DNA of 10,094 nucleotides from Candidatus Thorarchaeota archaeon (GTDB lineage: Archaea > Asgardarchaeota > Thorarchaeia > Thorarchaeales > Thorarchaeaceae): positions 1 through 10,094 of the forward strand of contig PRDJ01000053.1 in NCBI GenBank assembly GCA_003345555.1, in the 5' to 3' direction. How positions within the stretch are numbered: position 1 is the stretch's first letter; each line of letters opens with the position of its first letter. The notes beneath the pieces were generated by a model. It was not told where the DNA came from and made no database searches. It was given only the letters and a program-made list of their open reading frames with translations. The position numbers were made by a program, and so were the translations under genes. Below are positions 2,934-9,920 of this stretch, piece after piece.

Positions 2934-2954
2934 CAATTACGTGATATTTAGCAG

Positions 2955-2978
2955 AAAGCCCAGGAGTTCACTCCTGGG
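2955..2978 (+). other. IS left-end guide tetranucleotide (AAAG) and subterminal hairpin
   Basis: 8-bp perfect stem with a TTCA loop, directly after AAAG. Confidence 0.85.
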
Positions 2979-3073
2979 ATGAACGCGAAATATAGGAGCT
3001 ATTATGTTGAGTCATGTAGACATATACCAGAAGTAATAGCCGAAAGTTCGTCGAGGAGCAGAAGGGACGATGA
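2979..3073 (+). pseudogene. tnpA: Vestigial Y1 transposase: N-terminus fused to the C-terminal helix, with a large internal deletion and a frameshift
   Basis: Reads MNAKYR-SYYVESCRHIPEVI, then after a 1-nt shift RKFVEEQKGR-stop. This resembles the TnpA C-terminus SY(Y/F)VES.GHISE..I.KYIEEQK. The HUH core is missing, and the catalytic Tyr position reads TTC (Phe). The stop overlaps the tnpB start (ATGA, 3070-3073). Confidence 0.7.
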
Positions 3074-4107
3074 TACTGACCTTCAGGATTAAGCATGGGA
3101 CGGACTTCTCGAAGGAGTTAGCACTCGCCCGAAAGGTGGCCGAGATTGCGATAGTGACAAGGTCTAGGAGTACTGCGGACGTGAGACACATAGGCCTGAA
3201 GTCTGCAATCTCCAACCAGATTCTCAGGAAGTATTCGCGCAAGAGCATTATGAAAGTGAAGAGCGTTCCACTTACCGTTCCCGGCCAGTCCATCAAAGTG
3301 AACAAGGAGTCGCGGTGCATAGTGATTCCATGTTTGGGGCTCAGCCTGAATTACGAGTTCAGGAACGACTTTGGAAAGGTGAACCAGATAGAAATCGATA
3401 GCGAGTACGCCTGCGTTTCTGTATCGATAGCCGAACCACCTCAAATCAATGTCTGGGGCGCAATTGGCGTCGACAGGAACACGACGAAGCACTGTGTGGT
3501 CATCGCTTGCCCCCGGACAGGCAAGGTGTGGAAGCTCGGGAAGAGCGCTGAGCACATTCACAAGAAGTACTCCAGACTGAGGCGGAGATACCAGAGGTTA
3601 AGGAAGTACAAGAAACTCAAGCAGGTTAGCCGTCGGGAGCGAGACATAGTCAAGAATATAGATCACAGAATCAGTAAGAAGATAGTGGAAATAGCGAAAG
3701 AGAATAGCTGTATGATTAGGATGGAAAATCTCACAGGGATAAGGAAGAACAAAGGACATTCCAGGTCGTTCAGGTATTCCCTGAACAGCTGGTCCTTCTA
3801 TCAGCAGCAAACGTTTGCCGACTACAAGGCCAGACTGCAAGGAGTACAGGTATCATATGACGAACCTGCACTGACGAGCCAGTTATGCTCAAGGTGCGGT
3901 CTCATAGGTATCAGGAGCGGCAAGGAATTCAAGTGCCCGAGTTGCGGGCACGTTGACCACGCTGACTCTAACGCTTCATTCAACATAGCGTTGTGTCGTG
4001 GCGCAGGTCGATTGCATGCAGACAGAGATGCATGCAACGGGAGCACTGATACCCCCAGAGAGGCAATAGCGAGAATGACGCCAACCTCAGAACCCCACGC
4101 GCCTTAG
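3070..4107 (+). CDS. tnpB: RNA-guided endonuclease TnpB (345 aa)
   Basis: RuvC-I IGVD135RN, RuvC-II RME219NL, zinc ribbon C273xxC276...C289xxC292, RuvC-III HAD299SNASFNIA, and a basic bridge-helix region. It lies inside IS200/IS605 ends. Confidence 0.93.
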   Translation: MILTFRIKHGTDFSKELALARKVAEIAIVTRSRSTADVRHIGLKSAISNQILRKYSRKSIMKVKSVPLTVPGQSIKVNKESRCIVIPCLGLSLNYEFRNDFGKVNQIEIDSEYACVSVSIAEPPQINVWGAIGVDRNTTKHCVVIACPRTGKVWKLGKSAEHIHKKYSRLRRRYQRLRKYKKLKQVSRRERDIVKNIDHRISKKIVEIAKENSCMIRMENLTGIRKNKGHSRSFRYSLNSWSFYQQQTFADYKARLQGVQVSYDEPALTSQLCSRCGLIGIRSGKEFKCPSCGHVDHADSNASFNIALCRGAGRLHADRDACNGSTDTPREAIARMTPTSEPHAP

Positions 4108-4142
4108 CGGCGGGAGTATGTCAGAGATGAGCACCGATGGTC
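3985..4142 (+). ncRNA. Predicted omega/reRNA overlapping the tnpB 3' end and right end, with the guide taken from the flank starting at 4125 (boundaries approximate)
   Basis: This is the established location of TnpB guide RNAs. Visible structure: 9-bp perfect stem TTGCATGCA(4012-4020)/TGCATGCAA(4029-4037) and the right-end hairpin 4094-4114. The 5' end and guide length cannot be fixed from sequence alone. Confidence 0.65.
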
Positions 4143-5137
4143 CTGTTAATAGCGACCTCCCCGATGTCTGCGCAATATGAAGCGATTCTTACCAAGTGGT
4201 ACACGAACACAGCCTTCTGAGAGGAGGGGGTGTTCTCGACTGATGATTCGAGTGCTGCGAGTCTGTGTGCAAGGTCCTCTGCGTTTGCCAGGGACCTTAG
4301 GGCGTCTGCGGACTCCACTCTTGCGTCAAAGCTGTGATTTCTCTGTTGGGTCTCGACTCCAAAGAAGACCCGTGACGAGTTGTCGTATACATCAGAAAGC
4401 TCCTCGGCGAGCTTGAGAACCTTCGGTCCTGCAGAACGCAGCTTGAGGAGCTCTGCGGTCGCCCCGCATACGTGATCAGCAATGCGTTCAATGTATTTGG
4501 CCGCCAAGCTGAAGTGCAAGGCGTCGGATGACGAAATCTCAATCTTTCTCGCGTAGGTAGGGTCCTGCAATGCTAGGTGGCACAGGCGCTCGACGAAGTA
4601 ACGGTGACGATCAACATCTTCGTCACGTGCCACGATTCTTTTTGCATCATCGAGATCTCCTGTCTTCATTGCTTTGATGAGTCCTGTAAGCATGTACTTG
4701 GTCGTCGAGAACTGCCGCTTGAGTATCGGGCTGATGACCTGTTTCTCGCTCGTGTCTCCTATCAGCAGGCGCTTCTCGTCCTCTTCCAGCACTTCGAATC
4801 CGGGGAGGCGTCTAACCAGCTGACTCGTCTCTTCTCTTGCTGCCATGTCAATTGGTTCTGCGAATTCCACTTCAAAGGAATTCACTCCTACAATGTAGGC
4901 TCCGACCAGAAGGCTCTGAATGCTGCTGCTCCCGCTCTCATCCATTGCGAACCTGATTGGCGCTGTGGCTGGTTTCTCCATTTCAGGCGGCAGAATCTCC
5001 AGCGCTCCTCCTGCAGTCTCAGTTATTCTTACTTCCGGGCTCTCAGTGCCCGTGAGACCTGACCGTTCGCACCACTCCAGCGGCAAGTAGACATAGTAAG
5101 AGTTGCGGACTCTGTTCAGCTTTCGGGTTATTGTCAC
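4121..5137 (-). CDS. Archaeal-type phosphate uptake regulator: N-terminal AbrB/SpoVT-like DNA-binding domain plus PhoU repeats (338 aa from GTG at 5137)
   Basis: N-terminal TRKLNRVRNSYYVYLPLEW..SGL is AbrB-like. PhoU motifs RDEDVDRHRYFVER, KYIERIADH and a degenerate second repeat LVRIASYCADIGEVAINR are present. It is divergent from pstS. The start was moved from 5239 to GTG 5137 because the domain begins there and TTATCA lies 24 nt upstream. Confidence 0.85.
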   Translation of the reverse strand: MTITRKLNRVRNSYYVYLPLEWCERSGLTGTESPEVRITETAGGALEILPPEMEKPATAPIRFAMDESGSSSIQSLLVGAYIVGVNSFEVEFAEPIDMAAREETSQLVRRLPGFEVLEEDEKRLLIGDTSEKQVISPILKRQFSTTKYMLTGLIKAMKTGDLDDAKRIVARDEDVDRHRYFVERLCHLALQDPTYARKIEISSSDALHFSLAAKYIERIADHVCGATAELLKLRSAGPKVLKLAEELSDVYDNSSRVFFGVETQQRNHSFDARVESADALRSLANAEDLAHRLAALESSVENTPSSQKAVFVYHLVRIASYCADIGEVAINRTIGAHL

Positions 5138-5161
5138 AATGAGTACATCTGATGCACTCTT

Positions 5162-5230
5162 TGATAAGTGTTGGCATATGAAGCATATACAGCACTTGCA
5201 AACATGTGAAGTACATGCACAGCATATATC
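5162..5230. promoter_or_regulatory. Divergent promoter region of the regulator and pst operon, with roughly 10-bp-phased CAT(A/G)-like repeats
   Basis: TATA-like TTATCA (5167..5162, minus) and TATATC (5225-5230, plus). CAT/CAC triplets fall at 5175, 5184, 5193, 5203, 5214 and 5223. Imperfect direct repeat: catatgaag-catatacagca / catgtgaagtacatgcacagca. Confidence 0.5.
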
Positions 5231-5275
5231 TCCTCCCACAGATGGCGAAGATTGACAAAAGGTGAGAAAAGAAAC

Positions 5276-6322
5276 ATGAACAAGAGTATGACCAATCTAT
5301 TCGTTGGTTTGCTCATTGGCATTGTCGTTGGCGCCGGTGCACTTTTCATAGTCACACCATCGAGCGGCCCAGCGACTTACACCATCACCACGGCTGGCTC
5401 CACAACTGTCTATCCGCTGAGCCAAGAGTGGTCAAGCATCTTCCATGAGGACTTCCCTGCTTTCCTGGTCAATGCGGCAGCAGGCGGTTCAGGAGTCGGG
5501 CAGTCTCAGGTAGCTGAACGGCTGATACATATCGGCGGGTCTAGCTCTTATCCATCTGCCCAGTACCGCGCGAACTACACAAACGTCAAGATTCTGCCTG
5601 TTGCAGCTGACGCACTCGCAATTGTCGTCAATCCTTCGGTGAACGGCTCGCTCTTCAGGCTTGATTCTGACATGGCTGCGGCTATCTTCCAAGGTAACAT
5701 CACAACCTGGGAGGACTTTGCCTCAACCTTCCACGTCAGTGTGGCAGCCACTGGCACGATTGATGTATATGTGAGATCAGACGCAAGTGGAACGACCGCG
5801 ACATTCGGCAAGTGGCTATCTACATCAACCGGCAACCCGAACCCTTACGCGAACCTCACATGGAGACTCGGAAGCTCGGAGGTCATCTCCTGGCCTGCTG
5901 GGTTCAACGCGGTTATGGGTAATCCTGGTGTGGCTTCAGGAGTGAAGGGCGACTCCAAGGCGATAGGCTATGTAGGTTTTGCCTTCACGGAAGGTCTGAC
6001 TGATGCTGACCTCTACAACTATGGAAACGGTGAGTGGGTTGTCCCCAGCTTGGCAGCTGCTCTCAAGGCCATTCCAACCACACTGACTGACCCTGGCCAG
6101 GATCTGATGAATTCTGCTACTTCTGGTGCATACCCGATAGCTCGGCTCCTCTTCTATTTGGTGAACGTAGACAATGTGCCGTGGTATGTCATTGTATACC
6201 TTGACTGGGCGATTGCACAGGGACAGGCATACGTATCCGGCGTTGGATATGTGCCAATCAACGGAACGGCGGCAGCCTCCTACTCTCTGAACGCGGTGGG
6301 CATGCTCAAACCAACTATGTAG
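5276..6322 (+). CDS. pstS: Phosphate ABC transporter substrate-binding protein, membrane-anchored (348 aa)
   Basis: AGSTTVYP, GGSGVG, DALAIVVNP, RSDASGTT and YPIAR motifs. N-terminal TM anchor with no lipobox. GGTGA SD at 5261-5265 favours the ATG at 5276 over TTG 5252. Confidence 0.93.
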   Translation: MNKSMTNLFVGLLIGIVVGAGALFIVTPSSGPATYTITTAGSTTVYPLSQEWSSIFHEDFPAFLVNAAAGGSGVGQSQVAERLIHIGGSSSYPSAQYRANYTNVKILPVAADALAIVVNPSVNGSLFRLDSDMAAAIFQGNITTWEDFASTFHVSVAATGTIDVYVRSDASGTTATFGKWLSTSTGNPNPYANLTWRLGSSEVISWPAGFNAVMGNPGVASGVKGDSKAIGYVGFAFTEGLTDADLYNYGNGEWVVPSLAAALKAIPTTLTDPGQDLMNSATSGAYPIARLLFYLVNVDNVPWYVIVYLDWAIAQGQAYVSGVGYVPINGTAAASYSLNAVGMLKPTM

Positions 6323-6333
6323 GCTTTCTCGTT

Positions 6334-6372
6334 CGAGAGGTGGACTGGCGGGTGCCAGCTCACCCCTCGTTT
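6334..6372 (+). terminator. Intercistronic stem-loop after pstS (attenuator or mRNA stabiliser)
   Basis: 16-bp stem 6334-6349/6354-6369 with 2 mismatches and 1 G-U pair, a GGGT loop, and TTT following. A pyrimidine tract follows the pstS stop. Confidence 0.5.
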
Positions 6373-6452
6373 CCATCAAGTTGGCAGGACCAAAAAGGAT
6401 TCAACATGCGAACGATATTCCCGAGCACGGACAGCAGACTGGTGAGAGGCCG

Positions 6453-7484
6453 ATGGCATCAGAAGATTCATCAGGGGCATCATCTCCAAGCCGATTTCCC
6501 GGACGGATTGGGTCAAACACCACGGTTCGACTTCGGGCTCTCACGAGAATGCGAGGCCCCGCTTTGCAGGATGCTGTTGGCAAGTTCGTTCTTCTCGTAC
6601 CGGCCTTCGCAGGTTCTGCTCTAATAATACTGATTCTAACATTCCTCTGGTACGAAGCAACACCGATCTTTCTGGCCCCTCAAGGAGGGCCTTCCATTGT
6701 TATACAACCCATTTGGGACCCAAACAGAGACCTCTACGGTATTGCGTTGTTCATACTTGGGTCGTTCATATGCACGTTCTTAGCAATCGCGATGGCTGTT
6801 CCCTTGGGTATCGGGGCGGCCGTGTTTCTGAGCGAGTTCTGTCCACCTAGAATCAGAACCTCGTTGCGCATGATTGTAGAGATGATGGCCGCAATACCTT
6901 CCATAGTGTACGGATTATGGGCTTACATCGTTATGGTGCCTTGGATTAAGAACTCTTTTGCACCCGCGGTGCAATCAAATCCCTTGACGGCTTGGATGCC
7001 GTGGTTCCAGGGCTCGACTAATGGTCTCAGTGTTCTTGCTGGCGGCACCATCCTTGCCATAATGCTATTGCCCACAGTAGTAGCAGTTTCGGACGACGCG
7101 CTCCGGTCTGTGCCAAGCTCGTACCGTGAGGCATCACTTGCGCTTGGTGCAACCAAGACAGAGACAGCCGTGAAGATAGTGGTGTCTGCGGCCATACCGG
7201 GCATAGGGGCGGCGATAGTGCTGTCGCTAGGAAGAGCGGTCGGCGAAACGATGGCAGTGCTCATGGTAACAGGCAACTCCCTGCAGATACCTTTCACGCT
7301 CCTAGACCCGGCTTACGTCATGACTAGTATAATAACAAACCAGCTTGGCTACGCTTTTGTCTTTCCGCTTTGGAGGTCAGCTTTGTTTGCAGTGGCGTTT
7401 GTTCTGTTAATGATGTCTGTATCTTTCACAGTCATTGCCAAATGGTTCGTAAAATGGGGAATGAAGACCAGAGGTCTGGTATAG
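6453..7484 (+). CDS. pstC: Phosphate ABC transporter permease PstC (343 aa)
   Basis: EMMAAIPSIVYGLW, MLLPTV, EAA motif EASLALGAT and RAVGETMAVLMV. GGTGA SD at 6441-6445 supports the ATG at 6453. Confidence 0.93.
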   Translation: MASEDSSGASSPSRFPGRIGSNTTVRLRALTRMRGPALQDAVGKFVLLVPAFAGSALIILILTFLWYEATPIFLAPQGGPSIVIQPIWDPNRDLYGIALFILGSFICTFLAIAMAVPLGIGAAVFLSEFCPPRIRTSLRMIVEMMAAIPSIVYGLWAYIVMVPWIKNSFAPAVQSNPLTAWMPWFQGSTNGLSVLAGGTILAIMLLPTVVAVSDDALRSVPSSYREASLALGATKTETAVKIVVSAAIPGIGAAIVLSLGRAVGETMAVLMVTGNSLQIPFTLLDPAYVMTSIITNQLGYAFVFPLWRSALFAVAFVLLMMSVSFTVIAKWFVKWGMKTRGLV

Positions 7485-7495
7485 GATGTGAAGAA

Positions 7496-8461
7496 ATGTC
7501 GAGCGACTCTTGTGCGACATCAGGCACGGCAAATGAAACAGCCTCCTCAGCTCCGGAGCCTGAGATTGGGCCAACGAGAAGATCATTGCTCTGGCTCAAG
7601 TCTCAGCTGCTGGTGAAGACCAGACGCGAAGCGAAGGACTTGCTCCTGAAGATTCTCTTTGCGATAACGACGCTGATAGTCATCCTTCCATTCTTCCTCA
7701 TTGTCATTCAACTGGCAGTTACGGGACTGAGCGGACTCACTCTGGACCTCTTCACGACATTTCCAGGTGCTTCTCTGACAGGAGGAATCCGGAACGCAAT
7801 TGTGGGGACCATTCTGCTGGTGCTTGTCGCAGGTGGGGTTGGCATTCCTCTAAGCGTATTGGGCGCAGTATACATCAGTGAATACTCTCCGCCCGGCAGA
7901 ATACGCAGTACTGTCGAGTTCGCGTCTGACGTTCTGGCTGGCATACCATCTATCGTTTTCGGAGCCTTTGGATTCGCTTTCATTGTGGTTTTCCTGAATG
8001 TGGGAATGGGACTTGTTTCGGGAGGTCTGACCTTGGCCTTCATGATGATGCCCACAGTCCTGAGGACAACTCAAGAGGCCTTGCGGCAGGTCCCTGTTTC
8101 ATTGCGAGAGGCGTCGTTTGCTCTGGGTGCCACTAAGTGGACCACTACCTGGCGAGTAACCATAAGAGCAGCATTCCCGGGAATCGTGACGGGAGTGCTA
8201 CTGGCAATAGGGCGAGTAATGGGTGAAACCGCCCCACTGATATTCACATCCGGCAACAGCCTCACCACCCCAACATCAATTCTGGGTCCTGCTTCGTGGG
8301 TTGCGTCGCTTCCGTTCACGATCTGGGCATATGTTTCTGACCCACGGCCTTATCTTCAGGTCAAAGCCCAGAGCACTGCGCTTGCCCTGCTTGTCATGGT
8401 CTTGGCTGTGGATGTGGTTGCAAACTACATTTCGCGAAAGGTGACTAGGAGGCTGGTATGA
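7496..8461 (+). CDS. pstA: Phosphate ABC transporter permease PstA (about 321 aa; start uncertain)
   Basis: LAGIPSIVFG, MMMPTVLRTTQEAL, EASFALGATKWTT and RVMGETAPL. ATG at 7496 follows the pstC stop. The stop overlaps the pstB ATG (ATGA). Confidence 0.93.
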   Translation: MSSDSCATSGTANETASSAPEPEIGPTRRSLLWLKSQLLVKTRREAKDLLLKILFAITTLIVILPFFLIVIQLAVTGLSGLTLDLFTTFPGASLTGGIRNAIVGTILLVLVAGGVGIPLSVLGAVYISEYSPPGRIRSTVEFASDVLAGIPSIVFGAFGFAFIVVFLNVGMGLVSGGLTLAFMMMPTVLRTTQEALRQVPVSLREASFALGATKWTTTWRVTIRAAFPGIVTGVLLAIGRVMGETAPLIFTSGNSLTTPTSILGPASWVASLPFTIWAYVSDPRPYLQVKAQSTALALLVMVLAVDVVANYISRKVTRRLV

Positions 8462-9225
8462 TGACAGCTAGGACGCATCAGATTGAGGTTTACGACCTGT
8501 CCACATGGTTCGGACCGAAGGCGGTTCTGAAGAACATTACATGCCACTTCAGTGACAACGCAGTGACAGCCATCATGGGGCCATCGGGCTGTGGGAAGAG
8601 CACCTTCCTCCGAACGATTAACAGGCTCAATGACATGATTGGCAACTTCAGGATGAAAGGCAAAATCCTCCTCGAAGGAGAAGACATCTACGGTCCTCAA
8701 GCGAATGTGTACGAGTTGCGACGTAAGATTGGGATGGTCTTCCAGCGGCCAAACCCGTTCCCTATGAGTATCCGGGACAACGTCAAGTATGGACCGAGGC
8801 TACACGGAGTAAAGGATGATAACGAGCTGGACCCGATAGTGGAAAAATCCCTCAAAAGAGCTGCTCTTTGGGACGAGGTCAAGGACGGCCTTGACGAACC
8901 TGCGCCAAACCTGTCAGGAGGCCAGCAACAGAGGCTCTGCATTGCTAGAGCACTTTCAGTGGATCCTCCTGTTCTTCTCATGGACGAGCCTGTCTCCTCT
9001 CTGGACCCCATAAGCGCCCAGAAGATCGAGAACCTTATTGTAGAGCTGAAGAAGGATTATACGATTATAATGGTCACGCACAATGTCCAGCAGGCATTCA
9101 GAGTGTCCGACCAAGCAGCATTCCTCTACCTCGGCGAGCTGATTGAGTTCGATAAGACACGTCGGATTGCTGAAGCCCCGGCTGACGAGAGAACAGAGGC
9201 ATTCATCACAGGTCGTATCGGGTAA
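8458..9225 (+). CDS. pstB: Phosphate ABC transporter ATPase PstB (255 aa)
   Basis: Walker A GPSGCGKST, GMVFQRPNPFPMSI, signature LSGGQQQRLCIAR, Walker B LLMDEP, H-loop VTHN, and C-terminal TEAFITGRIG. Confidence 0.96.
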   Translation: MMTARTHQIEVYDLSTWFGPKAVLKNITCHFSDNAVTAIMGPSGCGKSTFLRTINRLNDMIGNFRMKGKILLEGEDIYGPQANVYELRRKIGMVFQRPNPFPMSIRDNVKYGPRLHGVKDDNELDPIVEKSLKRAALWDEVKDGLDEPAPNLSGGQQQRLCIARALSVDPPVLLMDEPVSSLDPISAQKIENLIVELKKDYTIIMVTHNVQQAFRVSDQAAFLYLGELIEFDKTRRIAEAPADERTEAFITGRIG

Positions 9226-9233
9226 GTGATAAC

Positions 9234-9920
9234 ATGAAGACTCAGATCGAGATCTACCTCGGAGAGATTGAACAGAAGCTTCGAAGAGAACAGGAAATCA
9301 CGACCGGCGCCATCTTGGACTCGATTAAGGCATTCGAGGGTTTGGACCTTTCTCTTGCTTCGAAGCTCAAGGAAACGAGCACCGCAATCGAGGAACTCTC
9401 GGACAATGTTGAGGCGCACGTATTCGAGACCATTGCACGCAGACAGCCTGTCGCTAAGGACCTTAGGAAGCTTGCGGCGTACCTGCATGTTGCACACAGT
9501 CTTTTCAGAATAGGGCGCTATACCTACAAGATTGCTCACATGGTCAATTTGGCTCAAGGCCTCAAACACTACAAAGAGCTTGAGATACTGCCGCGCATGG
9601 CAGAGACGGCCAAGAAGACTCTTGATATTGCGATGGATGCGGTTATCACAGGTGACTTGTCCCACATCGATGAGCTCGAGAAGCTGGAAGTACAGATGGA
9701 CAAGGATACGGAGGACATGTTCGAGGAGATTGTGGGATACCTTCGAGAGCGGCAGGACATTACGAGGATGTCCTTGTTCTACATACTCGTGGGCAGATAC
9801 TATGAGCGCACCTCCGACCATGCATTCATGATAGCAGAGCGAGCGATATACATGGTAACGGGCAAGAAAAGGAAGCTCGGCCTCGCATACCGCGGCAGGA
9901 AGTCAACGGCACCTCACTAG
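9234..9920 (+). CDS. phoU: Phosphate transport system regulator PhoU (228 aa)
   Basis: RRQPVAKDLR, two helical repeats, EVQMDK and GRYYERTSDHAFMIAERAIYMVTG. It is the last gene of the pst operon. Confidence 0.92.
   Translation: MKTQIEIYLGEIEQKLRREQEITTGAILDSIKAFEGLDLSLASKLKETSTAIEELSDNVEAHVFETIARRQPVAKDLRKLAAYLHVAHSLFRIGRYTYKIAHMVNLAQGLKHYKELEILPRMAETAKKTLDIAMDAVITGDLSHIDELEKLEVQMDKDTEDMFEEIVGYLRERQDITRMSLFYILVGRYYERTSDHAFMIAERAIYMVTGKKRKLGLAYRGRKSTAPH

Follow-up and report, generated by a model that had tools for sequence, protein, structure and literature searches.

IS608 of Helicobacter pylori, which encodes a Y1 TnpA and a TnpB, inserts 3' of TTAC and carries AAAG 5' of its left hairpin, with TTAC 19 nucleotides (nt) from the hairpin foot; its right cleavage site, TCAA, ends 10 nt 3' of the foot of the right hairpin (PMC3201880). 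The ISDra2 TnpB of Deinococcus radiodurans (408 amino acids, aa; PDB 8H1J and 8EXA) contains a REC domain of four helices (residues 13-116) and a disordered C-terminal domain (376-408) that overlaps the omega RNA, whose scaffold has 116 nt, four stems and a pseudoknot (PMC10097598). The TnpB of Thermoplasma volcanium has a rearranged catalytic site and the transposon-associated motif (TAM) TGAC, found at the left end of its element (PMC10530073). According to a 2026 review, most characterised TnpBs have a length of about 350-400 aa, and ISAam1 (369 aa) and ISYmu1 (382 aa) are among the best performers (PMC13639567). Here we analysed a 10,094-nt stretch of a Candidatus Thorarchaeota genome (assembly GCA_003345555.1, contig PRDJ01000053.1), hereafter the window, which contains a tnpB gene. 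Our reading, to which we assign a probability of roughly 85%, is that positions 2941-4124 form an IS608-like (IS200/IS605) element that has lost tnpA and has an intact, compact RNA-guided RuvC nuclease TnpB, an omega RNA, TTAC as its motif and a guide for the empty site.

As in IS608, the element is inserted 3' of TTAC and the target is not duplicated; AAAG immediately precedes a subterminal hairpin, the distance from TTAC to the hairpin foot is similar (18 nt here, 19 nt in IS608), and the right cleavage site ends 10 nt beyond the foot of the right hairpin on its 3' side. Its autonomous relatives also carry a Y1 TnpA. It differs in its right site (TCAG vs TCAA, although one related clade has TCAA), in the loss of all but about 27 codons of tnpA, in its archaeal host and in its 345-aa TnpB. 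The protein resembles ISDra2 TnpB in its WED-REC-RuvC-TNB organisation, D-E-D triad and C4 zinc ribbon, and in a disordered C-terminus overlapping the omega RNA. Also similar are the scaffold of about 115 nt, with several stems and a candidate pseudoknot next to the guide, and the predicted identity of TAM and transposon target motif. In contrast to ISDra2, REC consists of three helices within residues 14-55 and, being about 50 residues shorter, explains most of the 63-aa gap in length; the motif is TTAC in place of TTGAT; the sequences are only weakly similar (E 1.7e-5); and the RNA helices follow another order, the pseudoknot partner lying in the P2 loop here and at the 5' scaffold end in ISDra2.

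The closest solved relatives are the Cas12f enzymes (type V-F; AsCas12f 7WJU/8J12, OsCas12f and CnCas12f), both by sequence (E 1e-16 to 1e-18, RuvC/TNB) and by fold (Z 20-21, about 300 residues aligned). Unlike Cas12f, the protein is about 75-150 aa shorter, its guide would come from the transposon flank and the window holds no CRISPR array. Cas12f acts as a dimer. The PDB entry 9nzp, named 'TnpB' (415 aa), has a code consecutive with those of Cas12f orthologues and may be a Cas12f (RhCas12f1 also has 415 aa); no conclusion on dimerisation was drawn from it. Archaeal IS1341-type (tnpB-only) elements have the same protein family and the same length, and tnpB-only and tnpA+tnpB forms both occur.

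Element boundaries and insertion site

The source genome (G000) is a metagenome-assembled genome (MAG) of 82 contigs and 93% completeness. It was compared with three MAGs of the same genus (G001, G002 and G003; 83-88% complete), the public record of G003 being labelled Candidatus Thorarchaeota. G003 contains a copy of the element whose protein is 89% identical and which lies at an unrelated locus with unrelated flanks. The nucleotide alignment of the two copies shows 87% identity over window positions 2936-4124 and stops abruptly on both sides. Because homology breaks off so sharply at both ends, the element is delimited to 2941-4124 (1,184 bp). A first-pass annotation, made from the letters of the window, had predicted exactly these boundaries and a guide beginning at 4125, and the end of homology at 4124 agrees with both. 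Its end coordinate of 4142 is not the end of the gene: positions 4108-4124 are the remainder of the right end and 4125-4140 are host flank, the guide template (Table 1).

At the left junction both copies read ...ATTAC/GT(G/A)AT... (the slash marks the junction), and there is no similarity upstream of ATTAC. The right end of the element reads ...GTATGTCAG; both copies share ...GGGAGTATGTCAG up to the right junction, and this terminal sequence is conserved family-wide. A second GGAGTATGTCAG in the genome (contig C41) was considered as a further right end and rejected as a chance 12-mer, having no other homology to the element. At roughly 38 related left ends, whose flanks are unrelated, TTAC precedes the foot of a 6-9-bp hairpin by 17-19 nt, and AAAG makes up the last four nt before that foot; the base ahead of TTAC varies but is usually T or A. 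An empty site is present in G001, where the arsC-like and PhoU-like neighbours are 110 nt apart with no element between them, and the two flanks of the element in the window, when joined, are collinear with it. Across the two copies, the roughly 38 relatives and this empty site, insertion takes place 3' of a tetranucleotide; the target is not duplicated and there are no terminal inverted repeats. As is typical of IS200/IS605 elements, each end has a hairpin with a guide tetranucleotide 5' of it (AAAG/IP_L 2955-2978; GAAC/IP_R 4090-4114), with IS608-like spacings.

The insertion falls on the stop codon of a PhoU-like gene. The reconstructed end of this gene before insertion is ...GCT CAT CTG TAA, where TAA is the complement of the TTA in the TTAC target; it now reads ...GCT CAT CTC TGA, and both versions encode a protein ending in ...AHL. 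The G001 orthologue ends in ...AHV and has the same length. The PhoU-like gene is not truncated and the insertion is protein-silent. The earlier claim that the guide targets the empty allele of a regulator therefore holds in part: the guide matches the reconstructed empty site, but the gene is not disrupted.

Table 1. Positions of the features of the element and of its insertion site in the window.
Feature	Position	Strand	Description and basis
TTAC target tetranucleotide (left cleavage site C_L; predicted TAM)	2937-2940	+	Outside the element; comparison with G003 copy and related left ends
Left end	2941-2984	+	AAAG guide tetranucleotide, hairpin IP_L, then conserved GATGAA; read from sequence, architecture conserved in the family
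Left guide tetranucleotide AAAG	2955-2958	+	
Subterminal hairpin IP_L	2959-2978	+	8-bp stem CCCAGGAG/CTCCTGGG, loop TTCA
tnpA (Y1 transposase) 3' remnant	2994-3073	+	About 27 codons in two frames, one frameshift near 3044
tnpB	3070-4107	+	345 aa, stop TAG 4105-4107
Omega (right-end) RNA scaffold	4012-4124	+	113 nt; covariation in 47 sequences, RNAalifold, covariance model
P1	4012-4020/4029-4037	+	
P2	4038-4043/4052-4056	+	
P3	4060-4062/4086-4088 and 4067-4070/4080-4083	+	
P4	4094-4102/4107-4114	+	tnpB stop codon in loop; coincides with IP_R
Candidate pseudoknot	4046-4051 with 4119-4124	+	CUGAUA (P2 loop) with terminal UGUCAG
Right-end transposase signals	4090-4124	+	Family conservation and IS608 geometry
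Right guide tetranucleotide GAAC	4090-4093	+	
Hairpin IP_R	4094-4114	+	tnpB stop codon within loop
Right cleavage site TCAG	4121-4124	+	Separated from IP_R by a 6-nt spacer (AGTATG)
Guide template (host flank)	4125-4140	+	AGATGAGCACCGATGG; TTAC plus template recreates the empty target site
PhoU-domain gene	4121-5239	-	372 aa, Pfam PhoU; stop TGA is the complement of 4121-4123, supplied by the last bases of the element

Identity of the TnpB protein

By direct count the catalytic residues are GVD135, RME219N and HAD299 and the zinc-ribbon cysteines are C273, C276, C289 and C292. Across 49 aligned family members D135 and E219 never vary, and D299, C273, C276 and C289 are at least 90% conserved. 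The intact triad and four cysteines reported in the first-pass annotation are thus borne out, as is its figure of 134 aa ahead of RuvC-I. The protein thus has the canonical D-E-D RuvC triad expected of a TnpB, with a C4 zinc ribbon between RuvC-II and RuvC-III; in the alignment with Cas12f, E219 falls in the region of the canonical RuvC-II glutamate. The protein matches Pfam PF07282 (Cas12f1-like TNB zinc ribbon) with 69.3 bits (cut-off 26.3) and NCBIfam NF040570 (guided_TnpB) with 136.2 bits (cut-off 100). The latter match is confined to residues 81-307, which marks the short N-terminal WED/REC part as divergent. Among solved proteins, Cas12f enzymes and TnpBs are nearest in sequence (E 5e-18 to 2e-5). 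Assignment as a Cas12f (type V-F) effector was rejected: no CRISPR repeat array is found within the 10-kb window, the score for NF049972 (Cas12f2) is 120.9 bits and thus below its cut-off of 450, and the gene lies inside transposon ends.

An AlphaFold (AF2) model was built with the 49-sequence alignment and has a mean predicted local distance difference test score (pLDDT) of 87.9. It contains the first WED strand, beta1 (2-8), three REC helices (14-30, 35-41 and 45-55), the remaining strands of the WED barrel (68-120), RuvC from about residue 130, the zinc ribbon and a final helix (298-308). In the model the bilobed WED-REC-RuvC-TNB core characteristic of TnpB is complete. Residues 1-314 align with AsCas12f with Z 21.4 (303 residues, root-mean-square deviation (rmsd) 4.9) and with ISDra2 TnpB (8h1j) with Z 16.9 (283 aa, rmsd 5.1). 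pLDDT declines beyond residue 310 or so and is under 50 from 323 onwards; the C-terminal tail (about 310-345, with disorder over roughly 25-35 aa at the end) is predicted to be disordered. The earlier estimate that the last 38 aa or so overlap the omega RNA, beyond a folded core, comes close to these limits, since the scaffold begins at 4012 (codon 315).

Size and distribution of the family

More than 1,800 proteins match this TnpB at E<=1e-3. The best 120 homologues are nearly all 334-372 aa long, with query coverage of 95-100%, and an exhaustive search of a representative library returned 126 cluster representatives at E<1e-30; those that are full-length have about 315-370 aa. The hosts include Thermoplasmata, Micrarchaeota, Methanomassiliicoccus and other methanogens, Nitrososphaeria, and Heimdall-, Hod- and Thorarchaeota, among many groups. 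Small size is natural in this protein: its 345 aa are a usual length within a very large archaeal family. N-terminal truncation was considered and rejected, as the homologues are equally long and cover 95-100% of the query; the REC domain is naturally short and its shortness is shared. The description 'very compact' holds relative to ISDra2 and not relative to the protein's own family.

The matches include a long-known 'transposase related protein' of Thermoplasma acidophilum (P0020), which has 350 aa, is 59% identical and is an example of the IS1341-type elements. We found no biochemically characterised member of the clade of about 335-350 aa in the literature searched. The characterised TnpB of T. 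volcanium was considered as a member of the same family and rejected, given its rearranged catalytic site and TGAC TAM; it belongs to another branch. Ten family members with 50-59% identity (L036, L044, L051, L069, L079, L080, L084, L090, L095 and L096) are located on contigs binned as bacterial (Patescibacteria, Proteiniphilum, WOR-3, Marinobacterium, Saccharibacteria, Riflemargulisbacteria, Acholeplasmataceae and 'uncultured bacterium'), several of which are just 2-11 kb long; these could reflect mis-binning or inter-domain transfer.

Selection on tnpB

Compared with the G003 copy, codons 1-308 have a ratio of nonsynonymous to synonymous substitution rates (dN/dS) of 0.13, with dS 0.46. Over codons 309-345, dS falls to 0.08 and dN/dS is 0.8, a ratio resting on 7 differences only; the collapse of dS is as expected where an overlapping functional RNA would constrain the sequence. 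All invariant (8 of 8) and near-invariant (18 of 18) positions of the 49-sequence alignment are retained. The first-pass annotation had regarded YQQQTFADYKA and YDEPALTSQ as drifted and activity as not guaranteed. Decay is rejected as the cause: YQQQ.F.DYKA and YDEPA.TSQ are common to the nearest clade (P0003, P0004 and P0007), and the gene is under purifying selection. Position 268, which is L here and Y in the consensus, varies across the family and was likewise rejected as a sign of decay.

The omega RNA

The last 240 nt of 47 related elements were aligned. Conservation tracks codons upstream of about 4005 and not downstream. In the scaffold model 94.5% of the alignment cells are paired, compared with 35-47% in controls whose partners were slid by 1-3 columns. 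Compensatory changes are found in 24 of the 34 pairs, and none of 500 shuffles reaches the observed values; for P1-P3 (4012-4088) the count is 17 of 21 pairs. RNAalifold yields the same helices as the pair counts. As is characteristic of TnpB elements, and judged here at the level of sequence, a predicted structured omega RNA lies at the 3' end of tnpB and reaches the right transposon end.

The candidate pseudoknot is plausible, though its support is weak. Its pairing is near-invariant, with a single compensatory change, in a Methanomassiliicoccus-type clade where the RNA ends in ...GUCAA and the P2 loop is CAUUGAUA. In the right ends of this clade (L038, L062, L064, L074 and L101), GAAC is replaced by GAAT, TCAG by TCAA and the P2 loop CACUGAUA by CAUUGAUA, all together. 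The same terminal base seems to be constrained by DNA recognition by TnpA as well as by RNA pairing for TnpB.

A covariance model (R1) built on a 120-nt region scores 127.7 bits at the window site, the highest of all its matches. R1 matches once in G000, six times in G003 and twice in a further genome, G036, each time at the 3' end of a family tnpB; no solo omega RNA without tnpB was found by the R1 search of G000, G001-G003 or G036. G003 has six family omega-RNA/TnpB copies and about 32 TnpB-like matches, and G000 has one family copy. Rfam gave sub-threshold matches only (Glutamine-II at 3948-4037, 22.6 bits vs 33, and Acido-Lenti-1 at 2950-2978), which pick up hairpin P1 and the left-end hairpin.

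Loss of tnpA

Between the left end and tnpB only a remnant of a Y1 transposase gene is found, so this copy lacks the Y1 (HUH) TnpA of IS200/IS605 elements. The translations of the remnant, RSYYVESCRHIPEVIAE and KFVEEQKGR (followed by the stop), match the C-terminus ...RSYYAESVGHISEAVVKKYIEEQKKV of the intact TnpA of a related element (L060), and its TGA stop overlaps the ATG of tnpB (ATGA). Relatives with an extra 0.5-0.75 kb or so upstream of tnpB encode a Y1 transposase, which is intact in L060 and L043 (PF01797, 132-142 bits; L060, 142 bits). The element is a non-autonomous, tnpA-deleted derivative. The spacing between the left hairpin and tnpB is 112 nt in the G003 copy and 113 nt in the window copy, and because of this same spacing the deletion is placed before the two copies diverged. 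After the deletion the element still moved to a new site, presumably by means of a transposase acting in trans.

Proposed mechanism

TTAC is the expected TAM, because characterised TnpBs (ISDra2, TTGAT; T. volcanium, TGAC) use the target motif of their element as TAM. The same motif had been predicted in the first-pass annotation, and its position at the left end of both copies and its recurrence at about 38 related left ends argue for it. By analogy with ISDra2, other characterised TnpBs and IS608, the following steps are proposed. Transcription past the right end would add a guide derived from the flank (AGATGAGCACCGATGG...) to the scaffold 4012-4124, and the resulting complex of TnpB and RNA, a ribonucleoprotein (RNP), would cut DNA in a TAM-dependent manner where the guide sequence lies directly 3' of TTAC. 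The target would be the empty site left by excision, in which TTAC is directly joined to AGATGAGC, and cleavage there may serve a homing role. The occupied site should be immune, because TCAG precedes the guide sequence there; that TCAG and not TTAC stands in this position, as predicted, is confirmed in the window. Mobilisation would take place in trans by a Y1 TnpA.

The guide 16-mer is unique in the genome. A search of the genome for off-site guide targets found none; one site with two mismatches is at chance level. The guide (4125-4140, + strand) runs antisense to the final codons of the PhoU-domain gene, as would any read-through transcript; the arrangement is probably incidental but could affect that mRNA.

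Alternative explanations

Several observations weigh against an active TnpB system at this site. The element is single-copy in the source genome (search of the 93%-complete MAG), and no Y1 transposase (PF01797) was found in that MAG or in the three same-genus MAGs (83-88% complete); G036 has three. With no Y1 transposase to be found in the four MAGs of the genus, excision, the event that TnpB would counteract, may no longer take place, and the homing role has no visible partner here, although absence from incomplete assemblies is not proof. This copy of the RNA has an A.C mismatch in IP_R/P4, a C.C closing mismatch in P2 and one mismatch in P3b; to these are added the near-invariance of the pseudoknot pairing, the few differences behind the dN/dS of the tail, and the fact that RNA expression, RNP formation and cleavage are all expected by analogy. 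An immobile relic, in which the reading frame is open, the system is inactive and the DNA persists only because it is harmless where it lies, would fit the single copy, the lack of PF01797, the slight weakening of the RNA stems by the mismatches and a protein-silent insertion, which would meet little selection. We consider such a relic quite unlikely, for the dN/dS of 0.13 has accumulated since the split from a copy with the same tnpA deletion and indicates that TnpB was maintained after tnpA was lost; in addition, all 26 invariant or near-invariant positions of the family are kept and this copy has the best R1 score.

Retention of TnpB without tnpA, together with a + strand guide antisense to the end of the - strand PhoU-like gene, might instead suggest domestication, with TnpB and the omega RNA serving a host role such as antisense or RNA-guided control of that gene. 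This is highly improbable: the catalytic triad is intact, unlike in nuclease-dead TldR-type derivatives, the ends are fully transposon-like, and the unrelated flank of the G003 copy means that the guide is whatever adjoins the right end. We give hardly any credence to the view that the conserved 3' structures are solely single-stranded DNA signals for TnpA and not an RNA scaffold. P4 is indeed the IP_R hairpin, and GAAC and TCAG fit the DNA-recognition geometry of IS608 (PMC3201880). However, by the precedent of IS608 TnpA needs just a guide tetranucleotide, one hairpin and a cleavage site, whereas P1-P3 covary strongly besides; synonymous change is suppressed across the overlapping codons; and the layout matches the 116-nt ISDra2 scaffold with its four stems and pseudoknot (PMC10097598). 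The tnpA-deleted element with an intact TnpB and omega RNA is thus retained as the preferred reading.

Genomic neighbourhood

Upstream of the element, two tandem paralogous genes of 217 aa (26-679 and 771-1424, - strand) encode a Peptidase_M23 domain and share a 300-nt repeat of 73% identity. They are followed by a rubrerythrin-VIT1 fusion (1494-2372, - strand) and a low-molecular-weight phosphatase/ArsC-like gene (2466-2891, - strand); the rubrerythrin-VIT1 and ArsC-like genes are collinear with the PhoU-like gene in G001. Downstream, and divergent from the PhoU-domain gene, the region 5252-9920 (+ strand) contains a complete phosphate ABC transporter set, comprising a PBP-like PstS, two permeases, an ATPase and a 228-aa two-domain PhoU.

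Significance

Few archaeal genes are commoner than tnpB, and the biology of this one is ordinary: the element follows the rules of IS608 and its TnpB comes from a large known family. The clade is at or just under the known lower size edge of TnpBs, not outside it. In the literature examined no individually named TnpB is smaller than ISAam1 (369 aa). We suggest only tentatively, and regard as rather doubtful, that no natural family of canonical D-E-D TnpB nucleases is smaller than the archaeal clade of about 335-350 aa, with its three-helix REC and 113-nt scaffold and its position nearer to Cas12f than to ISDra2 TnpB. If this were true and the protein worked as a monomer, RNA-guided double-strand DNA cutting would have a new lower size limit; if it were true and the protein dimerised like Cas12f, it would offer a transposon-borne model for the origin of Cas12f dimerisation. 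With its minimal REC, a well-defined 113-nt RNA model and a size slightly below that of any TnpB named in the literature examined, the clade is a reasonable candidate for miniature-editor screening.

The locus also illustrates that a reading of a TnpB element from its letters alone (ends, TAM, guide and RNA overlap) can be correct on all its main points. Purifying selection on TnpB after the deletion of tnpA, in a genus with no detectable Y1 transposase, bears on the question of what keeps orphan archaeal TnpBs alive.

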